40,571 nucleotides of DNA from Deltaproteobacteria bacterium (GCA_030606515.1 JAUWGF010000001.1:1-40571), one strand, 5' to 3'; counted from the stretch's first letter, positions 1,308 to 25,713 are shown. Program-made: numbers and translations. The notes: generated by a model not told the origin, from the sequence alone.

Positions 1308-1394
1308 TTTTTCTGACCATAAAGGTCTGTCACGAAATAAACGGCAATTACAGGAAGGTATCAGCAATCATAAATCGACAGGGGTGGGGCCTCA

Positions 1395-1673
1395 TAAGCG
1401 CTAAGTTATTTTTGCACCGGATGGACTAATGAACATCGAACATCGAACGTCCAACATCGAATGCTGAATGGGAAAAAAGAACTTTATAAGCTTCGTATCT
1501 CATTAAAGGAACTTAGAGAGACCCAGAGATGGTTAAAACTCATTCAGCGTGTACCGTTGAATATTCGGTATTGGATATTCGTTTTTCATTCGACGTTGGA
1601 CGTTCGATGTTCGATGTTCGACGTTCATTTTTCAATGTAACCTGTGAACGTTTACAAAACAACTTAGCGCTTA
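1395..1673 (+). repeat. Palindromic heptamer-armed cassette, copy A (contains a C-terminal relic of a four-helix-bundle ORF)
   Basis: The left arm (1431-1472) is six tandem heptamers: GAACATC GAACATC GAACGTC CAACATC GAATGCT GAATGGG. The right arm (1591-1626) is its inverted complement. A perfect 13-bp outer inverted repeat taagcgctaagtt (1395-1407) / aacttagcgctta (1661-1673) is flanked by a direct 13-mer gggtggggcctca (1382-1394 and 1676-1688). Confidence 0.7.
1461..1640 (+). pseudogene. Relic of a four-helix-bundle (23S rRNA IVS-type, PF05635-like) protein gene; only the C-terminal helix remains
   Basis: A 59-codon frame reads MLNGKKELYKLRISLKELRETQRWLKLIQRVPLNI..., then runs into the repeat arm. 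The segment SLKELRETxxWL is the signature helix I recall for this family. The N-terminal roughly 80 aa are missing. Confidence 0.45.
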
Positions 1674-1812
1674 AAGGGTGGGGCCTCACAGGCCTTTCCC
1701 TGTCACATCACCTTGCGTATTGGTCCGTACACGGCGGTTCGGCTGGTTGAGCATCGGCTCAAGGCAAGCCTAAGGGGGATTTTCTTCAATTTCTGATTGA
1801 CTGGCTGTAATC

Positions 1813-1840
1813 AGTAATTATTATTTTAATAATAATTACT
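1813..1840. promoter_or_regulatory. 28-bp AT-rich palindrome, a candidate operator upstream of the 113-aa ORF
   Basis: agtaattattatt-tt-aataataattact has 13/13 complementary arms around a 2-nt centre. It lies 40 nt upstream of the ATG at 1880. Confidence 0.4.
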
Positions 1841-1879
1841 TTTTCAAAATATACCTATTGCGGAGAGGAGAAAAGACCT

Positions 1880-2221
1880 ATGATCCCCATTATTTGTCGT
1901 CTTGAAGACTTGATTCAGATGGCCCAAGAAGGAAAGAAGGTAGAGGGAGATGTTGTCCTCCACAAGATACCTATTAGTCTAAAGATACATCCGGAGGCAG
2001 GAATAACCGAAGACCAGGAGGCTTTCTTGCTCAATGCTGCATATCGTTTTCATGCAAAAGGCATGACTTATTCAGTTAGCAAGAATTATGTCACGGTCTT
2101 ACCTACCGCGTCCGTGGATGTTGCTCATAGCAATCGCGCCATCGCAAATGACCGTCTCAAGGCAGACTATAAACGCTTGAGTACTGCGGGCATATCAGTG
2201 GAAGAAAAGTATTTCGAGTAG
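1880..2221 (+). CDS. Hypothetical protein (113 aa), no family recognised
   Basis: Clean ORF with a strong SD (ggagaggag) 6-8 nt upstream of the ATG. No motif recognised. Confidence 0.5.
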   Translation: MIPIICRLEDLIQMAQEGKKVEGDVVLHKIPISLKIHPEAGITEDQEAFLLNAAYRFHAKGMTYSVSKNYVTVLPTASVDVAHSNRAIANDRLKADYKRLSTAGISVEEKYFE

Positions 2222-2311
2222 TCACACAAAGCCTGGAAGCCAGCTGCCTGCTCAGGTCCATACAGCTCGAAATAAATTAAGGAATTAACAACCATCCTCT
2301 CAATTCCTAAA

Positions 2312-4117
2312 TTAGAATCTATTAAGTTCTTCTATCTTTTTTGCCTGGGCCTTTCTGTATTCCTTCAACTTCCTTGCAAGGTCCTGGTCTTCCAGTGCCA
2401 GGATCTGAAGTGCCAACAAGGCGGCATTTTTTGCCCCGGCTTCTCCTATTGCCATGGTTGCAACCGGGACACCAGGGGGCATCTGGGCAGTGGAAAGCAA
2501 GGCATCAAGTCCATTCAAAGCCGAACTGTCCACCGGCACCCCTATTACAGGAAGGATCGTATTAGCTGCCAGGCTGCCGGCCAGGTGTGCCGCCATTCCG
2601 GCGCCGGCTATCAAGACCTTTATTCCTCTGGTTTCTGCCTCCCTGGCATATGATGCAGTAAGTTCCGGGGAGCGATGGGCTGAAGCAACCTTCAACTCAC
2701 ATGCTATATCAAACTCATTCAGAATATCCCGGGCCGCTTCCATAACCTCCTTGTCACTGAGGCTTCCCATGACAATGCCTACCTTGGCAGAGCTGCCGGA
2801 ATGCGGGGAAACCGGCGTGCTGGTCGCACCGGACGTGTATCTGAGGGCCTTTTGACCAATATCCCTTCTATAATGCATCCCCTCCCAGGAGATTTGTCCA
2901 ACTGCTTCATATACAAGGTCTATTGCCTCTGAAACGGTATTCCCAAGTGCCGTAACCCCAAGGACTCTTCCGCCGGATGTGACGAATCGGTCTCCATCCT
3001 TGGCGGTCCCTGCGTGAAAAACCATTACGTCCTGCATCTCAGCCACTTTTTCAAGACCGTGGATGACCTTGCCTGTCTCATAGCTTCCAGGATAGCCTCC
3101 GGAGGCCAGGACAACGCAAATAGCAGCCCTTGGATCCCACTCAAGTTTGACTTCATTCAGCCTGCCTTCAATTGCTGCCTCAAATATCTCCATCAGGTCA
3201 GTGCGGAGTCGCATCAGGATCGGCTGGGCCTCAGGATCACCGAACCGGCAGTTAAATTCCAAGACCTCAAACATACCGTCTTTAATTATTAGGCCACCAT
3301 AAAGCACTCCCTGATAGGGCCTTTTTGCCCTTGCCATAGCTTCCACAGTGGGCCTCATAACCGTATCCATGATATCGTCAAACAGGCCACTGCTTACCAC
3401 CGGGGCTGGGGAGTAAGCACCCATACCGCCGGTATTAGGCCCCTGGTCATTATCAAATATGGGCTTATGGTCCTGGGAAGTGGCAAGAGGAAGGACAGTT
3501 GTTCCGTCGGTTATAGCCATGAAGGAGGCCTCTTCCCCGGTGAGAAATTCCTCTACTATCAGACGATTGCCCGCTTCACCAAAGGCCTTTTTGCAAAGAA
3601 TGAGATCTATTGCCTCCTCCGCCTCAGCCAGGGAATGAGCGAGCAACACCCCCTTGCCGGCTGCCAGCCCGTCTGCCTTTATTGCAATTGGCACTCCAAC
3701 TACGTTCTTGATATAATCAAAGGCGGCATCCGGCTCGGTAAAGACCTTGTAGGCCCCTGTTCGTATACCTGCCTCAGTGAGTAAGTCTTTTGAAAATACC
3801 TTACTTGCCTCGATCTCAGCAGCCGCTTTAGTGGGTCCGAATACTGCAAGTCCCTGTTCGTTGAATCTGTCTACCAGACCTTCAGCCAGAGGGGCTTCCG
3901 GGCCTACTAAGGTTATATCGATACCCTCCTTTTTAACAAATGATACAAGACCATTAATGTCAGAGACCTTTAAAGGTACACAGACGGCATGTTGACTTAT
4001 GCCGGCATTTCCGGGAGCACAGAATACTCTGGAAATTCTGGGACTGGACGCCAGCTTCCAGCAAAGAACGTGTTCGCGTCCTCCGGAACCCACGACTAAT
4101 ATTTTCTTCTTATCCAT
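2312..4117 (-). CDS. purD: Bifunctional PurD-PurE fusion (phosphoribosylamine-glycine ligase plus N5-CAIR mutase domain)
   Basis: The N-terminal roughly 425 aa are PurD-like ([15 protein letters not shown]-grasp region, ...[12 protein letters not shown]). A Ser/Thr/Pro linker ([18 protein letters not shown]) follows. The C-terminal region is PurE-like ([28 protein letters not shown]). The start is set at ATG 4117 (SD ggagaaggag), and the GTG-initiated extension to 4231 is rejected. Confidence 0.85.
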
Positions 4118-4160
4118 AATCTCCTTCTCCCCATGTTTATTCTCAGAACAAGGCAGGCTC

Positions 4161-4188
4161 AACCTACCATCTGATGTAAAGGTGTCAA
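4161..4188 (-). promoter_or_regulatory. Candidate sigma-70 promoter for purD-purE
   Basis: On the minus strand, TTGACA (4188..4183), then 16 nt, then TAGGTT (4166..4161), about 45 nt upstream of ATG 4117. This position argues against the longer ORF start. Confidence 0.3.
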
Positions 4189-4258
4189 CGCCTGTTCTGA
4201 TGATCCGATGCCTGATTTTCGAGACAGTCACAATCTACGTGGTATAATGCCTGGGTAA

Positions 4259-4497
4259 GCACCGGATGGACTAATGAACATCGAACATCGAACGTCCAAC
4301 ATCGAATGTTGAATGGGAAAAGATGAAGAAACAGACTTATGACCTGGAAGAAAGGCTGCTAATTAAACGTCTCGGAAATTCTACAACTCATTGAATTTAC
4401 AGAGGGTTGTTGAGGCTTGGATTTTTGCCCCGAATCTGGAATAATGGAATAGTTCGATTTTCGATGTTCATCTTTCAAAACACTGATAGTAAACGTT
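4259..4497 (+). repeat. Palindromic heptamer-armed cassette, copy B (contains an N-terminal relic of the four-helix-bundle ORF)
   Basis: gcaccggatggactaatgaacatcgaacatcgaacgtccaacatcgaatg is nearly identical to copy A 1414-1463. A degenerate right arm agttcgattttcgatgttcat sits at 4451-4471, with the terminal gtaaacgtt at 4489-4497. Confidence 0.7.
4323..4394 (+). pseudogene. N-terminal relic of the four-helix-bundle protein gene (frameshifted and truncated)
   Basis: MKKQTYDLEERLLIKRLGNSTTH*. The xYDLEERLL N-terminus is as I recall for the family. The +2 frame continues VSEILQLIEFTEG, consistent with a frameshift followed by a deletion. Confidence 0.4.
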
Positions 4498-4524
4498 AAG
4501 TGAAAGGGAAAAGGGAAAAGGGAA

Positions 4525-5271
4525 ATGTACGCAGAATTGAAAAAAGCGCTGAATGATATAGCTGCAGAAAATGGTCTCATGGAAAGTGAAGTGAATATCA
4601 CGGCGAAAATCCTGACACCTGAAGAAGCCATAGGCAAGACAGAAAGGAAGGATTTCCCTCTGCTTCAAGGCAAAGAGTCTTTAATCCAGGCGGATTTCAA
4701 AAAAGCCTTGGGACAGGCCTTCACTGACATCCCAAGGTCTTTCAGGGGCAAACTCAAGGAAATACTCAAATTAAGATTAATGGATAACGGCGAGAGAGCG
4801 CTCTTCGTCGCTTCGCTGAACGCGCTGATGCGATACGCGGGTATAGTTAACGGCACTATTCACTGCAAGGACAAGGAGCCTGAATTATGTGCCAAGGAAA
4901 TGGTCAGAGCAGTCATCGATAAATACGGTTCTGATGTCAGGATCGGAATTGTTGGCTTCCAGCCTGCAATAATAGATAATTTCTCCAGCAGGTTATCTGC
5001 GGAAAATCTGAAAGTAACAGACCTTGATAGAGATAATATTAATAGAATAAAATATGGGGTGTCTATCTGGGATGGCAAAGAAATGACAGAAGAACTCTTT
5101 AAGGCCTGCGACGTCATCCTGGCAACAGGCTCAACAATAGTAAATGATTCCCTGTCTCAATTGATTTCTCTTTCAGACAAATATCAAAAGCCACTTTATC
5201 TCTATGGTACAACAATCGCCGGAGCCGGCATGATTTTGAACTTGAAAAGACTATGCTTTCAAGCTTCTTAA
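4525..5271 (+). CDS. DUF364/DUF4213-type Rossmann-like protein (putative heavy-metal chelation domain family)
   Basis: RIGIVGFQPAIIDNF ... ACDVILATGSTIVNDSLSQLI ... LYGTTIAGAG matches my recollection of PF04016 architecture. The ATG is preceded by (AAAGGGA)x3. Confidence 0.55.
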   Translation: MYAELKKALNDIAAENGLMESEVNITAKILTPEEAIGKTERKDFPLLQGKESLIQADFKKALGQAFTDIPRSFRGKLKEILKLRLMDNGERALFVASLNALMRYAGIVNGTIHCKDKEPELCAKEMVRAVIDKYGSDVRIGIVGFQPAIIDNFSSRLSAENLKVTDLDRDNINRIKYGVSIWDGKEMTEELFKACDVILATGSTIVNDSLSQLISLSDKYQKPLYLYGTTIAGAGMILNLKRLCFQAS

Positions 5272-5385
5272 GCAGACATGCATTTTGGTAATCATACTGA
5301 CTCTCCCGGGCCAAAGGGCCTGGAAAAAAATAATAAGGATGCCTATTTGTAGGCGTTCACAGGTTCATATTTCACCGTTAAGGCA

Positions 5386-13955: not shown

Positions 13956-13966
13956 ACCTAAGTTGA

Positions 13967-14231
13967 GCGATTAGCTGTTAGCCATTAGCGTTTAGCTTTT
14001 GAATAAAACTGTTGGCATCCTTCATAGCAATCCAAAAGTAGTTTACGTTTTTGGGGGTAATATACCTCGAAAAATATGACCTGTGCGATTAGCTACTGAC
14101 CGTTAACTTTTAGCTTAATAACCCGTTTTTATACAAAGTTTTTACCTATACCTAACGGCTAACGGCTAACGGCTAACGGCTGGCATCCGTCTATGTTGAA
14201 AAAGTGTAAACTACAAAATGAAGGATGCCAA
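13967..14231. repeat. Second palindromic heptamer-armed element (TAACGGC-type arms plus an inner inverted repeat)
   Basis: The left arm reads GCGATTA GCTGTTA GCCATTA GCGTTTA (13967-13994). It faces four perfect TAACGGC units at 14153-14180, which are the inverted complement of GCCGTTA. The inner inverted repeat is ttggcatccttcat (14012-14025) / atgaaggatgccaa (14218-14231), plus gtagtttac (14038-14046) / gtaaactac (14206-14214). A direct copy of the left arm lies at 14085-14114. Confidence 0.6.
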
Positions 14232-21084: not shown

Positions 21085-22611
21085 ATGGATCAGACACAAA
21101 AAATCCCTGATCCCAAGAACTTCACTGAAAACCTAGAAAGTACTATTGACGAACTATTTAGTGCATCACGACAGATAGAAATCGACCCCTTAACTAATGA
21201 AGTGAAGGATTTGTCGCAAGACAAAACAGATCAAGGAACGTCCTTTCAGGTTGTAGACCAGGGAGAAAAGCATCCGGAAGAAATCCAGATCTCAGATACC
21301 ATAGAGATGGAAGCTCCTGCTCAACAAATAGATATTACCACTGACGAAAAGATATTGGAATTAGATTCAGGGCCGGAGCTGGAGCCTGAAGAGAAAGAGA
21401 CTGAGGCTGTCAATCTGGAACAACAGTTCAGCCAACTCAATCAGCTGTTGTTGACCCTGGAGTGGGAGGTCACTCAACCACACGTAGTATCAGCCAAAAA
21501 CCTGATAGAGACAATCCGGAAAAATCCAAAGATAGAGGCAGACAAAAATCTCCACGAACTGTTCAATCTTATAATAAGGATCCTTGAAGGGATGGCGGAC
21601 AATCCTGAAAAAGTGCCCACTTCCGGGCCCGAAGCCCTGCAGAAAGGCCTTGACAGTTTAAAAAACCTTGTTTGGAACGAGGAACAGGACCCAAAGGCTA
21701 AAGAGGAACTCTTGAGATCCGCCAAGAAAGAGCTTGAATCAGCCATAGACATGGCAGTGCCTGAGGTTGCCCACGAAGTGTCCGAGGAGGCGGTTTCAGA
21801 ACGCCTTGTTGAGGATGTTAATGATCTTGAACCAGTGCTTGAAGATGCAGTCAAATTCCATATCAAAGTCCTTGATGACTGTATAGGTTATATTTTACCA
21901 GTTGAAAAGCTCCTTGCCCGGACTCCGGGGATGGAAAAGCTACATCATTTTCAGCAAAATGTTAAAAGCAGGCTTGAAAAACAAAAGAAAATATTGGAAA
22001 AGGCCTTAACCGGCGATTACGAGCCATCAGTTGATGTGCGTGATTATGCTGCTCAACAAACCGAAGACATCACCATAGAAATTGATAAAAAAGAAGAAAC
22101 ACCCTCAGTGACCATATCCTGCCCGTGGTATGAACTTGTAATTGCCCAATGGGACCAGAAGCAAGTGGCATTTGTCCCTGAAGATGTAGCATTTGCCGGG
22201 ACTGCTCCCTGGCGGGCCAAGAAAGGCATTAATAAGCTGGAAACCTTTAAATTAAAGAAGCTCAAGACCTGGCCATGGACAAAGCTTCAGCCATTGATGC
22301 AAGGGGAATTGTCGAATCAGGAAGAATCACAGCTTATAAAACTCGAGTTTCCGGTATTGCAAAAATCGATTTCATCTTTCAGCTACTCTCAGCCCCCAGA
22401 CAATCCGACTGTATCAGTCTTATGCCGTGGGGATAAAGGACTGGTCCTCATGCTGGACACCCCTTTAGAGACCATTTCTGTAACACCTGAGTGTTCATGG
22501 GAACCGTCCGCAGAAAGTAATGGACCATGGGTCGGCAACCTGAAGATAGAAAACAAACAAATATCCGTGGCAACGCTGGAAAGTCTCTTAAATACACTGA
22601 CAAATGAATAA
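21085..22611 (+). CDS. Orphan acidic protein (508 aa), function unknown; possible degenerate CheW-like C-terminal domain
   Basis: Strong SD aaggaga. The first roughly 120 aa are rich in E, D and Q. A helical middle follows (LLLTLEWEVTQPHVVSAKNLIETI...). The beta-rich C-terminus (YELVIAQWDQKQVAFVPEDVAF ... VSVLCRGDKGLVLMLDTPLETISV ... VGNLKIENKQISVATLESLL) is loosely CheW-like. Its stop overlaps the next start. Confidence 0.6.
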   Translation: MDQTQKIPDPKNFTENLESTIDELFSASRQIEIDPLTNEVKDLSQDKTDQGTSFQVVDQGEKHPEEIQISDTIEMEAPAQQIDITTDEKILELDSGPELEPEEKETEAVNLEQQFSQLNQLLLTLEWEVTQPHVVSAKNLIETIRKNPKIEADKNLHELFNLIIRILEGMADNPEKVPTSGPEALQKGLDSLKNLVWNEEQDPKAKEELLRSAKKELESAIDMAVPEVAHEVSEEAVSERLVEDVNDLEPVLEDAVKFHIKVLDDCIGYILPVEKLLARTPGMEKLHHFQQNVKSRLEKQKKILEKALTGDYEPSVDVRDYAAQQTEDITIEIDKKEETPSVTISCPWYELVIAQWDQKQVAFVPEDVAFAGTAPWRAKKGINKLETFKLKKLKTWPWTKLQPLMQGELSNQEESQLIKLEFPVLQKSISSFSYSQPPDNPTVSVLCRGDKGLVLMLDTPLETISVTPECSWEPSAESNGPWVGNLKIENKQISVATLESLLNTLTNE

Positions 22612-24967
22612 TCTCGATTCAACTTCGGACAATTTAATTAAAACCAGGTTGGCAGAAGTCGATCTTTACTGTAGTCAAGGTCTTAATAAAGAAGCTCGTC
22701 TTATTTGTTTAGAGCTTCTGAAACTGACAGGTGATAAGTCCCATCCCCTCTATACTGAAGTAGAGTCCCGTCTGAAAGGACTTCAGTTTAATGGCATAGA
22801 AACAGTCCCGTCAGGAAAAACGGATTTCACCACCAGCCCTGAAGATCTTAAACCTGAAGACCTTAAAGAATATCAGGACAATCAATTCAACAGTTGTATA
22901 GGTCTGATAGAAGCGGGCTTTCATTCAGAGGCCATAGAGGAGCTTAAAGCCTTACTTGTAGCAGGATACAGGCCGGGAATAATTCGAGCGAAAATCGGAG
23001 AATCATACCTGCGGCTGGATACGCCCTTTGAGGCCCTTGAGTATTTACAGGAGGCGATTGAGGACACGCAACTATCCAAGGATGAACGTCTGGATGTACT
23101 ATATCAACTGGTACTTACCCATGAACGAACAGGCGCGGTGCCCAAGGCCATTGAGGCTCTGGAACAAATCATCCGCCTTGATCCCGCCTTTAGAAACGCC
23201 AAACAGAGGCTTGAGGAACTTTCCCAAACAGCGCAGAAATATGGCCGGTTCTATTATCTGATTCGTAATCAGTTCCTCTCTGAAGAACAACTCAAAAGGA
23301 CCAAAGAACTGGCCAAACAGGGAAAAAAATCCATAGAAAGTATCCTGCTAAACCAGGTTGGCATAGACAAGACAGAGCTTGGCCGCTCCCTCAGCGAATA
23401 CTATCGATGCCCCTTTGTGGAATTTGACGAACTGGAAGTAGGAACCACACCATCTTGCGTGCGCGGTATCAAAGAACATTTTTTCAGGACCAATTCCTGT
23501 GCCCCGATTCGCGAAAAATTAGGGACCCTTATAGTTGCACTGGACAACCCCCATGACTTAGCAAAGATAGACAATATAAGAAGGGTCCTTAAGGCCAAAG
23601 GCTTTCAATTTGCAGTTTCCCTAAAGGAAGATATCAACAGATTCATAGACTATTTCTATGGGAAATATTCCACAGGAGGATCTGATGATGACGTGTTTGA
23701 GCAATTGGAAGTTGTTGATGAGGATACGGAACTCGAGGAAGAGGATAATGGCTTAGCATCAGATGCTGATAGCGTAGTAGTACAGATAGCCAATAAAACC
23801 ATAGAGGATGCCTATCATCGCAGGGCCTCTGATATTCACATTGAATCCCTGGCAGGCAAACGGGGGGCCCTGGTCCGCTTCAGGATCGATGGCGACTGTA
23901 TGCGTTATCAGACCGTTCCGTATAACTACAAGCGGGCCATGATTTCCAGAATCAAGATCATGTCCAACCTTGACATTGCCGAGAAACGCCTGCCTCAAGA
24001 CGGAAAAATAAAGTTCAGGACTCGCTCTGGTAAAACCCTGGAATTACGTGTAGCCACACTTCCCACAACTGAAGGCAACGAAGATATCGTACTCAGGCTA
24101 CTGGGCTCTTCCGAGGCCATGCCGATTGATCGCATAGGGCTCCTTGATCAAAACCTGGAGCAGCTAAAACAGCTTTTGCAATTGCCTTATGGGCTTATAT
24201 TGGCAGTTGGTCCTACCGGATCAGGAAAGACAACTACCCTGCATGCTGCACTTGGCTATATAAATCGGCCTGAGAAAAAAATCTGGACAGCGGAAGATCC
24301 TGTAGAAATCATGCAGGATGGATTGCGCCAGGTGCAGGTGAAACCCGGTATCGGCCTGACTTTTGCCCGGATTCTCAGGGCCTTTTTAAGGGCAGATCCG
24401 GATGTGATAATGATCGGCGAAACTCGAGACGAAGAAACTGCCACAACCGCAATAGAAGCATCCCTGACAGGTCACCTGGTCTTTTCAACCCTCCATACCA
24501 ATTCCGCCCCTGAGACAGTTACAAGGCTTTTAGGAATGGGAATGGACCCATTCAACTTTGCTGACGCCCTCTTGGGGGTCTTGGCACAGAGGCTTGTAAA
24601 AAGACTTTGTCCCAAGTGCCGCGAGGCCTATCAGCCTGATGACCACGAGAAAAAACATATTTTACACGAGTACGGGCATCATCCAACTCAACCCTTAGAG
24701 TTATCAGACCTAAATGAAATAACACTTTATCGGCCAAAGGGCTGCCAACATTGCAACAGGACCGGCTTCAGAGGCAGGCTTGCAATCCACGAACTACTGG
24801 TGTCAGATGACGGTCTCAAAAAGCTCATTCAGGAAAAACGCCCCGTGGGAGAGATACGGGAACATGCCATGAAGCATGGAATGTCGATCCTGAAACAGGA
24901 CGGCATACAAAAGGTCTTAAGGGGAGATACAGATCTGAAACAGATTAGGGCAGCCTGCATAAGGTAA
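22604..24967 (+). CDS. TPR::T2SSE_N::PilB/GspE-family secretion ATPase fusion
   Basis: Residues 1 to about 205 are TPR-like (e.g. GFHSEAIEELKALL, AIEALEQIIRLDPAFRNAKQRLEEL). Residues about 215-350 are a GspE-N-type domain (LGRSLSEYYRCPFVEFD). The ATPase core has Walker A GPTGSGKTTT, TAEDPVE, Walker B DPDVIMIGETRD, His box TGHLVFSTLHTN, and the tetra-Cys motif CPKC...CQHC. Confidence 0.85.
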   Translation: MNNLDSTSDNLIKTRLAEVDLYCSQGLNKEARLICLELLKLTGDKSHPLYTEVESRLKGLQFNGIETVPSGKTDFTTSPEDLKPEDLKEYQDNQFNSCIGLIEAGFHSEAIEELKALLVAGYRPGIIRAKIGESYLRLDTPFEALEYLQEAIEDTQLSKDERLDVLYQLVLTHERTGAVPKAIEALEQIIRLDPAFRNAKQRLEELSQTAQKYGRFYYLIRNQFLSEEQLKRTKELAKQGKKSIESILLNQVGIDKTELGRSLSEYYRCPFVEFDELEVGTTPSCVRGIKEHFFRTNSCAPIREKLGTLIVALDNPHDLAKIDNIRRVLKAKGFQFAVSLKEDINRFIDYFYGKYSTGGSDDDVFEQLEVVDEDTELEEEDNGLASDADSVVVQIANKTIEDAYHRRASDIHIESLAGKRGALVRFRIDGDCMRYQTVPYNYKRAMISRIKIMSNLDIAEKRLPQDGKIKFRTRSGKTLELRVATLPTTEGNEDIVLRLLGSSEAMPIDRIGLLDQNLEQLKQLLQLPYGLILAVGPTGSGKTTTLHAALGYINRPEKKIWTAEDPVEIMQDGLRQVQVKPGIGLTFARILRAFLRADPDVIMIGETRDEETATTAIEASLTGHLVFSTLHTNSAPETVTRLLGMGMDPFNFADALLGVLAQRLVKRLCPKCREAYQPDDHEKKHILHEYGHHPTQPLELSDLNEITLYRPKGCQHCNRTGFRGRLAIHELLVSDDGLKKLIQEKRPVGEIREHAMKHGMSILKQDGIQKVLRGDTDLKQIRAACIR

Positions 24968-25165
24968 GGTAAGGTAAGGTAAACGTTCACAGGTTACGTT
25001 TATGCAGTACGGAATTGTTTTAAAAGATGAACGTCGAATATCGAACATCGAACGTCCAACGTCGAATAAAAAACGAATATCCAATACCGAACATTCAACG
25101 GCTATTTCTGTTTCTTCATCTTTTCCCATTCAACATTCGATGTTGGATGTTCGATGTTCATTAAA
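24963..25165 (-). repeat. Palindromic heptamer-armed cassette, copy C (empty: the arms are joined and the ORF deleted), preceded by (GGTAA)x4
   Basis: (GGTAA)x4 spans 24963-24982. gtaaacgttcacaggttac (24979-24997) is the exact reverse complement of 1637-1655. 25027-25100 is the reverse complement of copy A's right arm region (about 1554-1628). 25103-25165 is the reverse complement of copy B's left arm. The internal ORF is reduced to MKKQK*. Confidence 0.75.
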
Positions 25166-25713
25166 GGGCATCTGGCCAAAGGACTGTATAAAGGTCCACG
25201 GGGAGTTAGCCGGCTTTTGTATACTATTACTTTTTCTACTGTAAAAGGCTCAATTACGATCTTATCCTTTAAAAATACCTCAAGAAGCCGTGAAAGCCTA
25301 CGGGGAGAACGGACTCGTCCTACAGTCAGGTGAGGCGTAAAGGCACGGTCTTCCCGTGGGAAGCCCTTTTCCTCCAGGGCTGTTTCAATACTGTTTTGCA
25401 GTTTGCACAGAAGATCTGTTTCACCTCCGATTCCGATCCACAGTATCCGGGGCCGTCTAAGGTTTGGAAAGATGCCTGTACCATTTAAAAACAAAGAACA
25501 ACCCCTGTGAAGGCAACAGACCTCTTTGCAGGCAGCTATCACGCTCTCCTTACTTGATTCCTGAATTTCACCCAGAAATTTGAGTGTCAGGTGCATATTG
25601 GACGGATAGATCCACCTCACATCCGCCTTGGCGGACTTCCACCGGCCCTGATGTTCTTCAAGTATCTTACGCTGTGTGCCCGGCATGTCTATTGCCAGGA
25701 AAGTACGTACCAT
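25102..25713 (-). CDS. thpR: RNA 2',3'-cyclic phosphodiesterase (2'-5' RNA ligase family) with a repeat-derived C-terminal tail
   Basis: Two H-x-T/S-x motifs (HLTLKFLG, HLTVGR). N-terminus MVRTFLAIDMP. The last roughly 20 codons (MNIEHPTSNVEWEKMKKQK*) lie inside cassette copy C. Confidence 0.8.
   Translation of the reverse strand: MVRTFLAIDMPGTQRKILEEHQGRWKSAKADVRWIYPSNMHLTLKFLGEIQESSKESVIAACKEVCCLHRGCSLFLNGTGIFPNLRRPRILWIGIGGETDLLCKLQNSIETALEEKGFPREDRAFTPHLTVGRVRSPRRLSRLLEVFLKDKIVIEPFTVEKVIVYKSRLTPRGPLYSPLARCPLMNIEHPTSNVEWEKMKKQK

Follow-up and report, generated by a model that had tools for sequence, protein, structure and literature searches.

The origin and mobility of the intervening sequences (IVS) of 23S rRNA have, to our knowledge, been an open question since about 1990, and the conserved open reading frame (ORF) that they hold has no known role. 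ORF-bearing IVS, such as those of Leptospira and the S23p IVS of Coxiella burnetii, hold an ORF of the PF05635/TIGR02436 family in the loop of a stem formed by their terminal repeats (PMC4990558). Their sporadic distribution has been taken as a hint of horizontal transfer and Ralph and McClelland (1993, cited by PMC4990558) had proposed that the ORF serves as a component of mobility; in the literature searched, IVS mobility has been proposed and never shown (PMC4990558). Heptamer repeats are also abundant in bacteria and, as far as parts of two reports tell, lack a known partner protein (PMC4679880, PMC4692102). The stretch of DNA analysed here, referred to as the window (40,571 nucleotides of a Deltaproteobacteria bacterium, GCA_030606515.1, JAUWGF010000001.1:1-40571), holds three incomplete copies (A, B, and C) of an element whose intact members carry a PF05635 gene, for a four-helix-bundle protein, between inverted arrays of GAACATC-type heptamers. 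ORF-bearing 23S rRNA IVS are the closest described objects. The window copies are very probably relics of a mobile cassette that duplicates 12 bp of its target.

A reading of the window from its sequence alone (the sequence-only reading) had described the copies as a non-autonomous, possibly mobile cassette family caught in successive stages of decay, and this is supported by further copies, intact members, and filled and empty sites. The genome, a 1.70-Mb metagenome-assembled genome (MAG) of 202 contigs, was searched by BLAST with the three window copies, which yielded about 27 copies on 25 contigs, each with different flanks. A 26-mer from the arm, allowing up to two mismatches, occurs 44 times in the genome and its reversed control not once, so that the sharing of arms is not due to chance. 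The same 26-mer is present in 17/17 congeners (1 to 69 per genome) and absent from 23/23 genomes of other genera in the same family or order, the reversed control giving 0 everywhere. All genomes of the genus are MAGs, and the usual caveats apply to copy numbers, absences, and cross-phylum matches.

The strongest evidence for movement comes from the target sites. Copy A (1395-1673) is flanked on both sides by the 13-bp direct repeat GGGTGGGGCCTCA (1382-1394 and 1676-1688), which had been suspected of being a target duplication. At the orthologous site of the congener G007, ...ACAGGGGTGGGGCCTCA is joined directly to CGGGCCTTTCCCC..., with one 13-mer and no element, where this genome has the element between two 13-mers; both flanks are single-copy in this genome. 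Since the empty site holds one 13-mer, the direct repeat of copy A is a real target duplication. A collapsed element lies at the same insertion point in G013. The joined flanks of 23 copies were searched against the closest congeners and revealed filled and empty sites. The cleanest locus lies between two ABC-transporter genes, where G004 and G017 have a 330-bp ORF-deleted element with flanks GTGCATAGGACC and GTGCATAAGACC, and a single GTGCATAGGACC is all that is present in G010, G002, G009, and G001. The locus on contig C76 is a composite; a further inverted repeat bounds it on the outside, its duplication measures 9 bp (GAAGCTCCT), and G007 is empty there; the loci on C31, C46b, C109, and C191 are polymorphic as well, with untidy remnants.

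Where both terminal repeats are present, the layout of the element is always the same: 12 nt, an A, TAAGCGC...GCGCTTA, two further nucleotides (NN), and again 12 nt. The flanking 12-mers match at 12, 12, 11, and 11 of 12 positions in four of the ten complete elements, whereas 90 mismatched pairings of left and right flanks reach at most 9/12. An automatic scan for direct plus inverted repeats at 30 PF05635 ORFs found 3, against 4 in 600 controls, and is too strict for gapped ends; the manual comparison of filled and empty sites is therefore taken as the deciding evidence. These sites, together with the 12-bp duplication, constitute direct sequence evidence that this kind of element moves. Insertion into the loop of a pre-existing hairpin was considered and rejected as a general rule: it fits the target of copy A (GGGG..GGCC TCAC GGCC..CCCC) and perhaps GGGTTTATCCCC, and the other targets do not fit.

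The same sites bear on the view that the repeats are host structures, that is, vertically inherited and immobile intergenic terminators or mRNA-stabilising elements like the repetitive extragenic palindromic (REP) ones, lost in some lineages. All copies sit between or at the ends of protein-coding genes, often just past stop codons, and form strong predicted hairpins (copy A folds as RNA at -108 kcal/mol, z = -10.9; copy C at -51.9 kcal/mol, z -3.4), and the genome has a Y1 gene of the IS200/RAYT type (RAYT, REP-associated tyrosine transposase). That gene, however, is not flanked by these repeats, and a structural role accounts neither for target duplications and single-copy targets at empty sites, nor for near-identical copies at about 27 unrelated loci with a patchy presence in distant lineages, nor for a core that encodes a protein and is under purifying selection. 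That the repeats are no more than host structures is poorly supported and extremely improbable.

Intact members of the mobile cassette, with the arrangement of arm, ORF, and arm foreseen by the sequence-only reading, were found in G004, G017, and G002, with ORFs of 118-121 aa. The intact element of about 600 bp consists of a 20-bp terminal inverted repeat (CATAAGCGCTAAGTTRTTTTG), some five GAACATC-type heptamers, the ORF, an inverted array, a tail, and the second terminal repeat. G004 holds two loci with a 119-121-aa ORF between the same arms, G017:C202 is complete, with a 118-aa ORF and a terminal repeat at either end, and G002:C42 bears a 120-aa ORF that is 90% identical. The heptamer arms are not the termini of the element; the separate 20-bp terminal inverted repeat, which begins CATAAGCGCTAAGTT..., lies outside them. 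CATAAGCGCTAAGTTRTTTTG is found at both ends of copy A, of the copies on C69 and C109, and of seven congener elements, and the termini of copy A also bound full elements in G004, G010, and G017. Fold prediction for the intact element (-184 kcal/mol, z -4.3) pairs the arms and covers the start-codon region; in this fold and that of copy A, a predicted stem made by the terminal inverted repeats encloses the ORF.

The intact ORF of G004 matches PF05635 with 51.4 bits (cut-off 33.8), TIGR02436 with 86.7 bits (cut-off 24), and PDB entry 2rld with an E of 1.7e-15. Its ratio of nonsynonymous to synonymous differences (pN/pS) between G004 and G017, 0.15 at a pS of 0.24, indicates purifying selection. 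The proposed PF05635 identity thus stands for the intact congener ORF, but not directly for the relics in the window, which remain below the cut-off (copy A, 13.2 bits, E 0.11; copy B, no match); they align to the intact 121-aa PF05635 ORF of a congener, and fail Pfam alone because they are too short.

Some observations concern the surroundings of such elements. At locus L013 (G004:C5), an intact cassette lies inside a further inverted repeat, GTAACTACCCAGG / CCCTGAGTAGTTA, with a flanking 10-bp direct repeat TATAATGTTT, a layout that suggests nested layers of insertion. Another palindromic repeat (…TTCGTCATTCCGGCGAAAGCCGGAATCC…), found at L092 (G013:C6), G000:C41, and C65, ends in TAAGCGCTAACTT, one base off the terminal repeat of the cassette; in G013, this repeat occupies an intergenic site that holds a GAACATC cassette in this genome.

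The three window copies comprise the following features:

1382-1394, plus strand: left target-site duplication of copy A, GGGTGGGGCCTCA, repeated at 1676-1688 and single and element-free in G007.
1395-1414, plus strand: left terminal inverted repeat of copy A, TAAGCGCTAAGTTATTTTTG, which pairs with 1654-1673 in the fold.
1431-1463, plus strand: left heptamer arm of copy A (GAACATC, GAACATC, GAACGTC, CAACATC, GAATG), 97% complementary to 1587-1619.
1474-1556, plus strand: ORF relic of copy A, 83 nt (helix ...KLRISLKELRETQRWLKLIQRVP), equal to reference positions 273-356 by alignment to the intact element.
1557-1635, plus strand: in copy A, the right arm of heptamers (1587-1635) and the segment inward of it, from alignment and complementarity to copy C.
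1636-1673, plus strand: in copy A, the tail GTAACCTGTGAACGTTTAC with the right terminal inverted repeat AACTTAGCGCTTA, from repeat pairing and fold.
1676-1688, plus strand: right target-site duplication of copy A, with 12/12 matches in the fixed geometry.
4259-4322, plus strand: in copy B, the left end (terminal repeat deleted) with the left heptamer arm, 98% identical to 1414-1476.
4323-4361, plus strand: N-terminal ORF relic of copy B, 13 codons, MKKQTYDLEERLL, matching reference positions 97-134.
About 4362-4451, plus strand: foreign insert of copy B, a piece of another dispersed repeat, with BLAST matches in C154, C200, C55, C88, C18, and C56.
4452-4482, plus strand: truncated right heptamer arm of copy B, 90% complementary to 25016-25046.
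24958-25000, minus strand: degenerate terminal repeat (CATAAG, then (GTAAG)n) and tail of copy C, as read from the sequence.
25016-25101, minus strand: in copy C, the right arm of heptamers with the segment inward of it, from alignment and complementarity.
25102-25119, minus strand: mini-ORF MKKQK* of copy C, from a deletion between two AAGAAACAGA words, by alignment to the intact reference.
25121-25163, minus strand: left heptamer arm of copy C, 98% complementary to 4283-4335.

The three copies with common arms lie where they had been placed (A, 1395-1673; B, 4259-4497; C, on the minus strand). The left arms of copies A and B are 98% identical (1414-1476 and 4259-4321), copies B and C are 98% complementary (4283-4335 and 25107-25159), and copies A and C 94% (1554-1635 and 25020-25101). 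The terminal 19-mers at 1637-1655 and 24979-24997 are exact reverse complements of each other, and copy A is bounded by the 13-nt inverted repeat TAAGCGCTAAGTT (1395-1407) and AACTTAGCGCTTA (1661-1673), both as first noticed. Other parts of that description need correction. Copy B does retain the N-terminus only, but the frameshift ascribed to it does not exist: after codon 13 another dispersed repeat replaces the ORF (about 4362-4451), so that the copy is a chimera and not a frameshifted ORF. G015 and G016 have the foreign insert too, at their orthologues of this locus. According to the orthologues, those in G014, G015, and G009 retaining CATAAGCGCTAAGTT at the left end, the left terminal repeat of copy B was lost via a deletion between two GCACCGG words. 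Copy C has the joined arms and the MKKQK* reported for it, and extends beyond the limits given, to about 24958, with its terminal repeat degenerated to (GTAAG)n.

Two short fragments, at 39-50 and 5353-5365, had been counted as further ends of the same family. Their sequence match holds, while their membership does not follow, because the 12-nt motif GTGAACGNNTAC (67 occurrences in the genome versus 5 for the reversed control) also ends CTGAACC-type arrays and the fragments need not belong to the GAACATC family. GTGAACGNNTAC ends both the CTGAACC arrays and the tail of the GAACATC cassette; in the window, a CTGAACC-type array with the end GTGAACGCTTAC occupies 3-50, and a solo GCGTTCACAGGTT lies at 5351-5368.

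Regarding neighbouring genes, Rfam matches the window only once, at 95-280, with a cobalamin riboswitch (RF00174, 120 bits); it lies upstream of a 295-aa ORF (420-1307), which by eye we take to be a CbiK-type cobalt chelatase, and copy A begins 88 bp beyond the stop codon of this ORF. A GGGAAAA-type tandem array of at least three units (4506-4524) directly precedes the start of the ORF at 4525-5271 and is kept in congeners as a GGCAAAAGGGAA-like sequence. Around copy C, a 203-aa minus-strand ORF (25102-25713) has no stop codon of its own and reads through the left arm to the TAG of the relic, and a 787-aa plus-strand ORF (22604-24967) has its stop codon within the (GTAAG)n tract that replaces the terminal repeat.

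The deletion series proposed from the window is real, and wider than first noticed. Mapping of 29 copies of this genome onto the intact reference shows that those in the window arose by deletion, the junctions lying at short repeats. Nine copies, C among them, share the minimal form MKKQK* with the same junction, a deletion between the AAGAAACAGA words at the start and the end of the ORF; another class retains 13 to 24 N-terminal codons; in another, the left arm is joined to ORF position 273 (copy A, C103) or 365; and a chimeric class holds some 62 bp that come from another cassette family, namely from its 3' end. Orthologous loci show collapsed arms; instances are ATGAACATCGAACATCGACGTTCATC at the copy B locus of G014 and, at the copy A locus of G013, ATGAACATCGA joined to CGTTCATC. 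Decay in place is directly visible at the C46b locus, where G004 has an intact ORF and this genome a chimeric derivative, with a common right flank (79% over 439 bp) and a common upstream argG end.

These data also bear on a spread without transposition, in which existing arrays serve as homology arms for gene conversion or replication slippage, and differences between species are mostly in-place decay. All 13 congeners compared have the copy B locus filled, with widely different contents that include arms of other heptamer families, and one and the same locus has the minimal form in G006 but longer ones in G015, G016, and this genome, as this view would have it; collapsed arms fit it too. At L015 (G010:C132:94100-94900), five tandem half-elements of about 110 bp follow one another (GGTTCAG heptamers, a GAACATC left arm, and then ATGAAGAAACAGAACAT); since the C46a copy has its orthologue here, tandem duplication is a further way in which arms expand. 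What such processes cannot explain are the clean, array-free empty sites and the 12-bp duplications at four insertions of the GAACATC family and two of the GTTAGCC family described below. As a sole explanation, this is improbable; conversion between arrays probably acts alongside transposition, not instead of it.

For the transposable cassette, it matters whether ORF-less derivatives have themselves been copied. Shared deletion junctions are no general proof of this, since junctions at AAGAAACAGA or at AAAAAG microhomology recur in place, and the argument is kept only for two cases. The chimeric derivative occurs at five unrelated loci (C46b, C180, and C184 here, and two in G010), its foreign piece being about 95% identical among them. 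Four or more loci have the 134|358 junction, at which the microhomology is only 2 nt: C25, G004:C55 with G017:C173, G004:C81, and G010:C97; the G004:C55/G017:C173 insertion is polymorphic and hence relatively recent. Both are unlikely to be independent deletions, so that non-autonomous derivatives were copied, be it by transposition in trans or by conversion between copies.

The GAACATC cassette is not the only one of its kind. PF05635 matches occur in 17 of the 18 genomes of the genus, some 90 in all, and nearly every PF05635 ORF in the genus lies between inverted tandem-heptamer arrays; at 21 of 30 such ORFs, the inverted repeats of the flanks exceed the 99th percentile of 1000 random controls. 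The proteins fall into eight clusters (at least 60% identity within and at most 50% between clusters), each with its own unit: GTTAGCC, GAAGGCT, GAAATTG, AGTAAGG, TTGGGTT, GTGATTT, and others. The sole intact PF05635 gene of this genome (on C86) belongs to the GAAATTG family. The GTTAGCC family has intact 119-aa ORFs and unrelated termini (CGAYCTGTGCGGTTAGC). Both of its filled sites, G009:C324 and G010:C62, hold intact ORFs. The cassette at G009:C324 is filled, with the target TCAAATACTTTC duplicated (one change in the right copy) and the sites in G005 and G007 empty; that at G010:C62 is filled, with the target GTCAAGAAATTTG duplicated and the site in G007 empty. The two families thus combine unrelated ends with a common architecture, gene family, and duplication of about 12 bp.

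Further repeats of other types were seen. In the window, two direct TTAGC-type heptamer arrays (13964-13998 and 14082-14116) lie 118 bp apart and may be a relic of the GTTAGCC family, and G017 has a TTAGC-type array at the copy B locus. The left flank of the copy on C24 (G000:C24:~2790-2950) is a different dispersed repeat of about 160 bp, GGTAAGCGTTCACATGGCACAGCATCTGC...GTAAACGCTTACAG, with roughly 50 listed matches across G007, G010, and G013 combined.

Concerning the machinery, the cassette has no transposase, as had been noted, and the PF05635 gene is its sole ORF. The main rival to a role of this protein in mobility is therefore a passenger model, in which the element resembles a miniature inverted-repeat transposable element (MITE) or a mobile insertion cassette and is moved in trans by an unlinked DDE transposase, the gene being cargo and the arms its regulatory or binding sites. 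Clear terminal inverted repeats, the fixed 12-bp duplication, the spread of ORF-less derivatives, and a protein family without known catalytic activity all suit this model. IS4-type elements, one possible parent, make duplications of 9-13 bp, and DDE transposases exist in congeners (PF01609 matches in G004, G010, and G012). Nevertheless, no pairs of terminal repeats at insertion-sequence spacing were found in G004 and G010, the two best-assembled congeners, and no inspected DDE locus has the termini. G004 holds a multi-copy DDE insertion sequence (L109, L117, and L120-L122) that is present about 13 times, has the ends GAGCGTGTCCCG...CGGGACAGACTC, and duplicates 4 bp of its target; as the mover of the cassette it was rejected, because its ends (GAGCGTGTCCCG) differ and its duplication is of 4 bp and not 12. 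Moreover, two families with unrelated termini and the same duplication length would demand two matched transposases or one with loose recognition of ends. The parent autonomous element was not found, which in MAGs does not prove its absence. We consider the passenger model somewhat doubtful.

The reading that we prefer is that a transposable DNA cassette left the copies in the window, which are decayed and non-autonomous, and that it is a cassette in whose mobility the four-helix-bundle protein takes part; the whole account, including this role, is given a probability of roughly 0.5. The cassette inserts between genes, duplicating 12 bp of the target, and then loses its interior stepwise by deletion between short direct repeats, until the arms collapse together. 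The protein would bind its cognate heptamer arms as a specificity or architectural factor, serving ORF-less copies in trans as well, and a separate enzyme would supply strand cleavage and joining. Once transcribed, the arms would form a long stem as in rRNA intervening sequences, a predicted stem that also buries the start codon. Such a role in specificity, which on its own we place a little short of even odds, is favoured because the gene is the only one in the element, is under purifying selection, and co-varies with the arms, and because the protein is the only component common to two families that make the same duplication.

Several points weigh against this account. The element has no transposase, and none of the ten transposase or reverse-transcriptase loci inspected (DDE, Y1, and reverse transcriptase) carries ATAAGCGCTAAG-like ends. 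Six of the ten complete elements have no recognisable duplication, and one or both terminal repeats are missing from many copies. Some shared junctions lie at microhomologies, where independent recurrence is possible, and gene conversion between copies could mimic the copying of derivatives. Intact ORFs occur in only 3 of the 18 genomes, all of them MAGs, and matches outside the genus are mostly in MAGs, with mis-binning possible. Finally, we know of no catalytic or transposition role for PF05635 proteins.

A spread through RNA was also weighed, in which a cassette transcript, its hairpin processed as in IVS, would be reverse-transcribed with the help of an Avd-like protein. Avd of diversity-generating retroelements is listed in PF05635 (PMC10053308), the predicted RNA stem is long and stable, and the genome has one RVT_1 match. 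Against this, a constant duplication length and geometry with defined inverted ends is typical of DNA transposition, not of target-primed reverse transcription, and neither a poly-A-like tract nor a template/variable repeat pair was seen. The sole RVT_1 match of this genome is partial and on another contig (C27) than the PF05635 matches (C86 and C200), so that no reverse transcriptase lies next to a PF05635 gene; the only other candidate enzyme here is the single Y1_Tnp gene of the genome (C155), and neither it nor the RVT_1 match is associated with the element repeats. RNA-mediated spread is poorly supported and highly improbable.

Outside the genus, a scan of one genome per species found the exact 26-mer in at least 116 further contigs, in many Desulfobacterota lineages, including the complete genome of Desulfosarcina widdelii PP31, and in some MAGs of other phyla, labelled Nitrospirota, Verrucomicrobiota relatives, and Gammaproteobacteria, where mis-binning is possible for the cross-phylum cases. 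Only 13 of the 80 loci fetched have flanks in common with this genome. Some of the loci, in the Nitrospirota MAG, are near-identical elements, and others are arms around unrelated interiors. The same arms stand as inverted pairs around unrelated, ORF-less interiors of about 150 nt at L188 (Desulfosarcina widdelii PP31), L167, L172, and L181, which stem from a cultured Desulfosarcina and Verrucomicrobiota-type MAGs; conservation of the arms thus seems not to depend on what lies between them. Six IMG/VR viral contigs (L244-L249) carry the exact 26-mer as a solo, left-arm-like array (…GATGAACATCGAACATCGAACGTCCAACATCGAATGATGAATGAAAAAA), intergenic and upstream of phage genes, with no inverted partner within 600 nt and no four-helix-bundle ORF, and with other heptamer arrays close by.

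What is new for the layout of a gene between heptamer arrays is the set of target duplications, clean empty sites, and copied ORF-less derivatives. With a multi-copy cassette, filled and empty sites in close species, and a full decay series, the genus is a natural experiment on IVS mobility and on the partner of heptamer repeats; the presence of a distinct heptamer unit for each protein subfamily bears on the latter question, and annotators gain a rule to recognise these repeats and their relics. A bolder version, which we regard as rather unlikely, would make PF05635 cassettes widespread autonomous bacterial transposons without a recognised transposase, whose pentameric protein would recognise its own heptamer arms and direct, or itself perform, insertion with a 12-bp stagger. 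If true, 23S rRNA IVS would be members that landed in rRNA, and many hitherto unexplained heptamer arrays of bacteria and phages would be their footprints or binding sites.

Several known systems share part of these features. Like MITEs and mobile insertion cassettes, the elements are small, with terminal inverted repeats, a fixed-length duplication, no transposase, many copies, and internally deleted derivatives, and as in insertion cassettes, among them MIC231 of Bacillus cereus, which is moved in trans by IS231A, there is a passenger gene. They thus show every feature of a MITE or insertion cassette except a known parent transposase. Unlike those, however, they have no parent with matching ends among the genomes searched, comprise two families with unrelated ends and the same duplication length, and always carry a PF05635 gene, the subfamily of which co-varies with the internal heptamer arrays. 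Abundant intergenic palindromic repeats are also typical of REP sequences and bacterial interspersed mosaic elements (BIMEs), and of the Correia elements of Neisseria. REP elements leave no target duplication and associate with a flanked Y1 gene (RAYT), and Correia elements are MITEs that duplicate TA, lack an ORF, and form transcribed hairpins cut by RNase III. A REP/BIME system with a RAYT was rejected here, since the single Y1_Tnp gene (C155) is unflanked by repeats and the cassettes have target duplications.

Avd, a four-helix-bundle protein that forms pentamers, is an accessory factor in a system akin to mobile elements; it binds nucleic acid and is the partner of a reverse transcriptase. 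Although it belongs to the same Pfam family, PF05635 (PMC10053308), the cassettes have no adjacent reverse transcriptase and no template/variable repeats, and their gene lies in a hairpin with target duplications. A diversity-generating retroelement was rejected, with PF05635 on C86 and C200, the sole RVT_1 match on C27, and no other gene in the cassettes.

Dispersed heptamer repeats have been described, in the parts of the reports drawn on here, as GGGNATC in Xanthomonas and Nostoc (PMC4692102) and TAACTGA in Beggiatoaceae (PMC4679880), next to the multicopy intergenic sequences of Geobacter metallireducens (PMC2700814, from its abstract and outline). They share with the cassettes short tandem arrays of 7 nt, mostly intergenic, and a strain-specific distribution. 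A passage in PMC4679880 proposes a repeat-binding protein, perhaps itself the mobile entity; the four-helix-bundle family is not mentioned in that paper, going by a term search, nor in the abstracts and outlines of PMC4692102 and PMC2700814. Unlike those repeats, the arrays of the cassettes are paired and inverted around a four-helix-bundle gene or its relic. Literature searches on PF05635, TIGR02436, heptamer repeats, MITE, and IVS returned no published description of this cassette.

As for the 23S rRNA IVS, these are defined by their place in a 23S rRNA gene (helix 9, 25, or 45), and their stem-loop is cut out of the transcript by RNase III. A cassette located in rRNA was sought and rejected, five complete 23S genes of congeners being uninterrupted (2948 nt for 2925 model positions). 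Translation is doubtful in both systems, given the poor Shine-Dalgarno of the Coxiella IVS (PMC4990558) and the predicted stem that covers the start codon of the cassette. PMC4990558 reports for IVS neither separate terminal repeats, target duplications, and empty sites nor multi-copy ORF-less derivatives. Unlike IVS, the cassettes are multi-copy and lie outside rRNA, with a separate 20-bp terminal repeat, 12-bp target duplications, empty sites, and many ORF-less derivatives.

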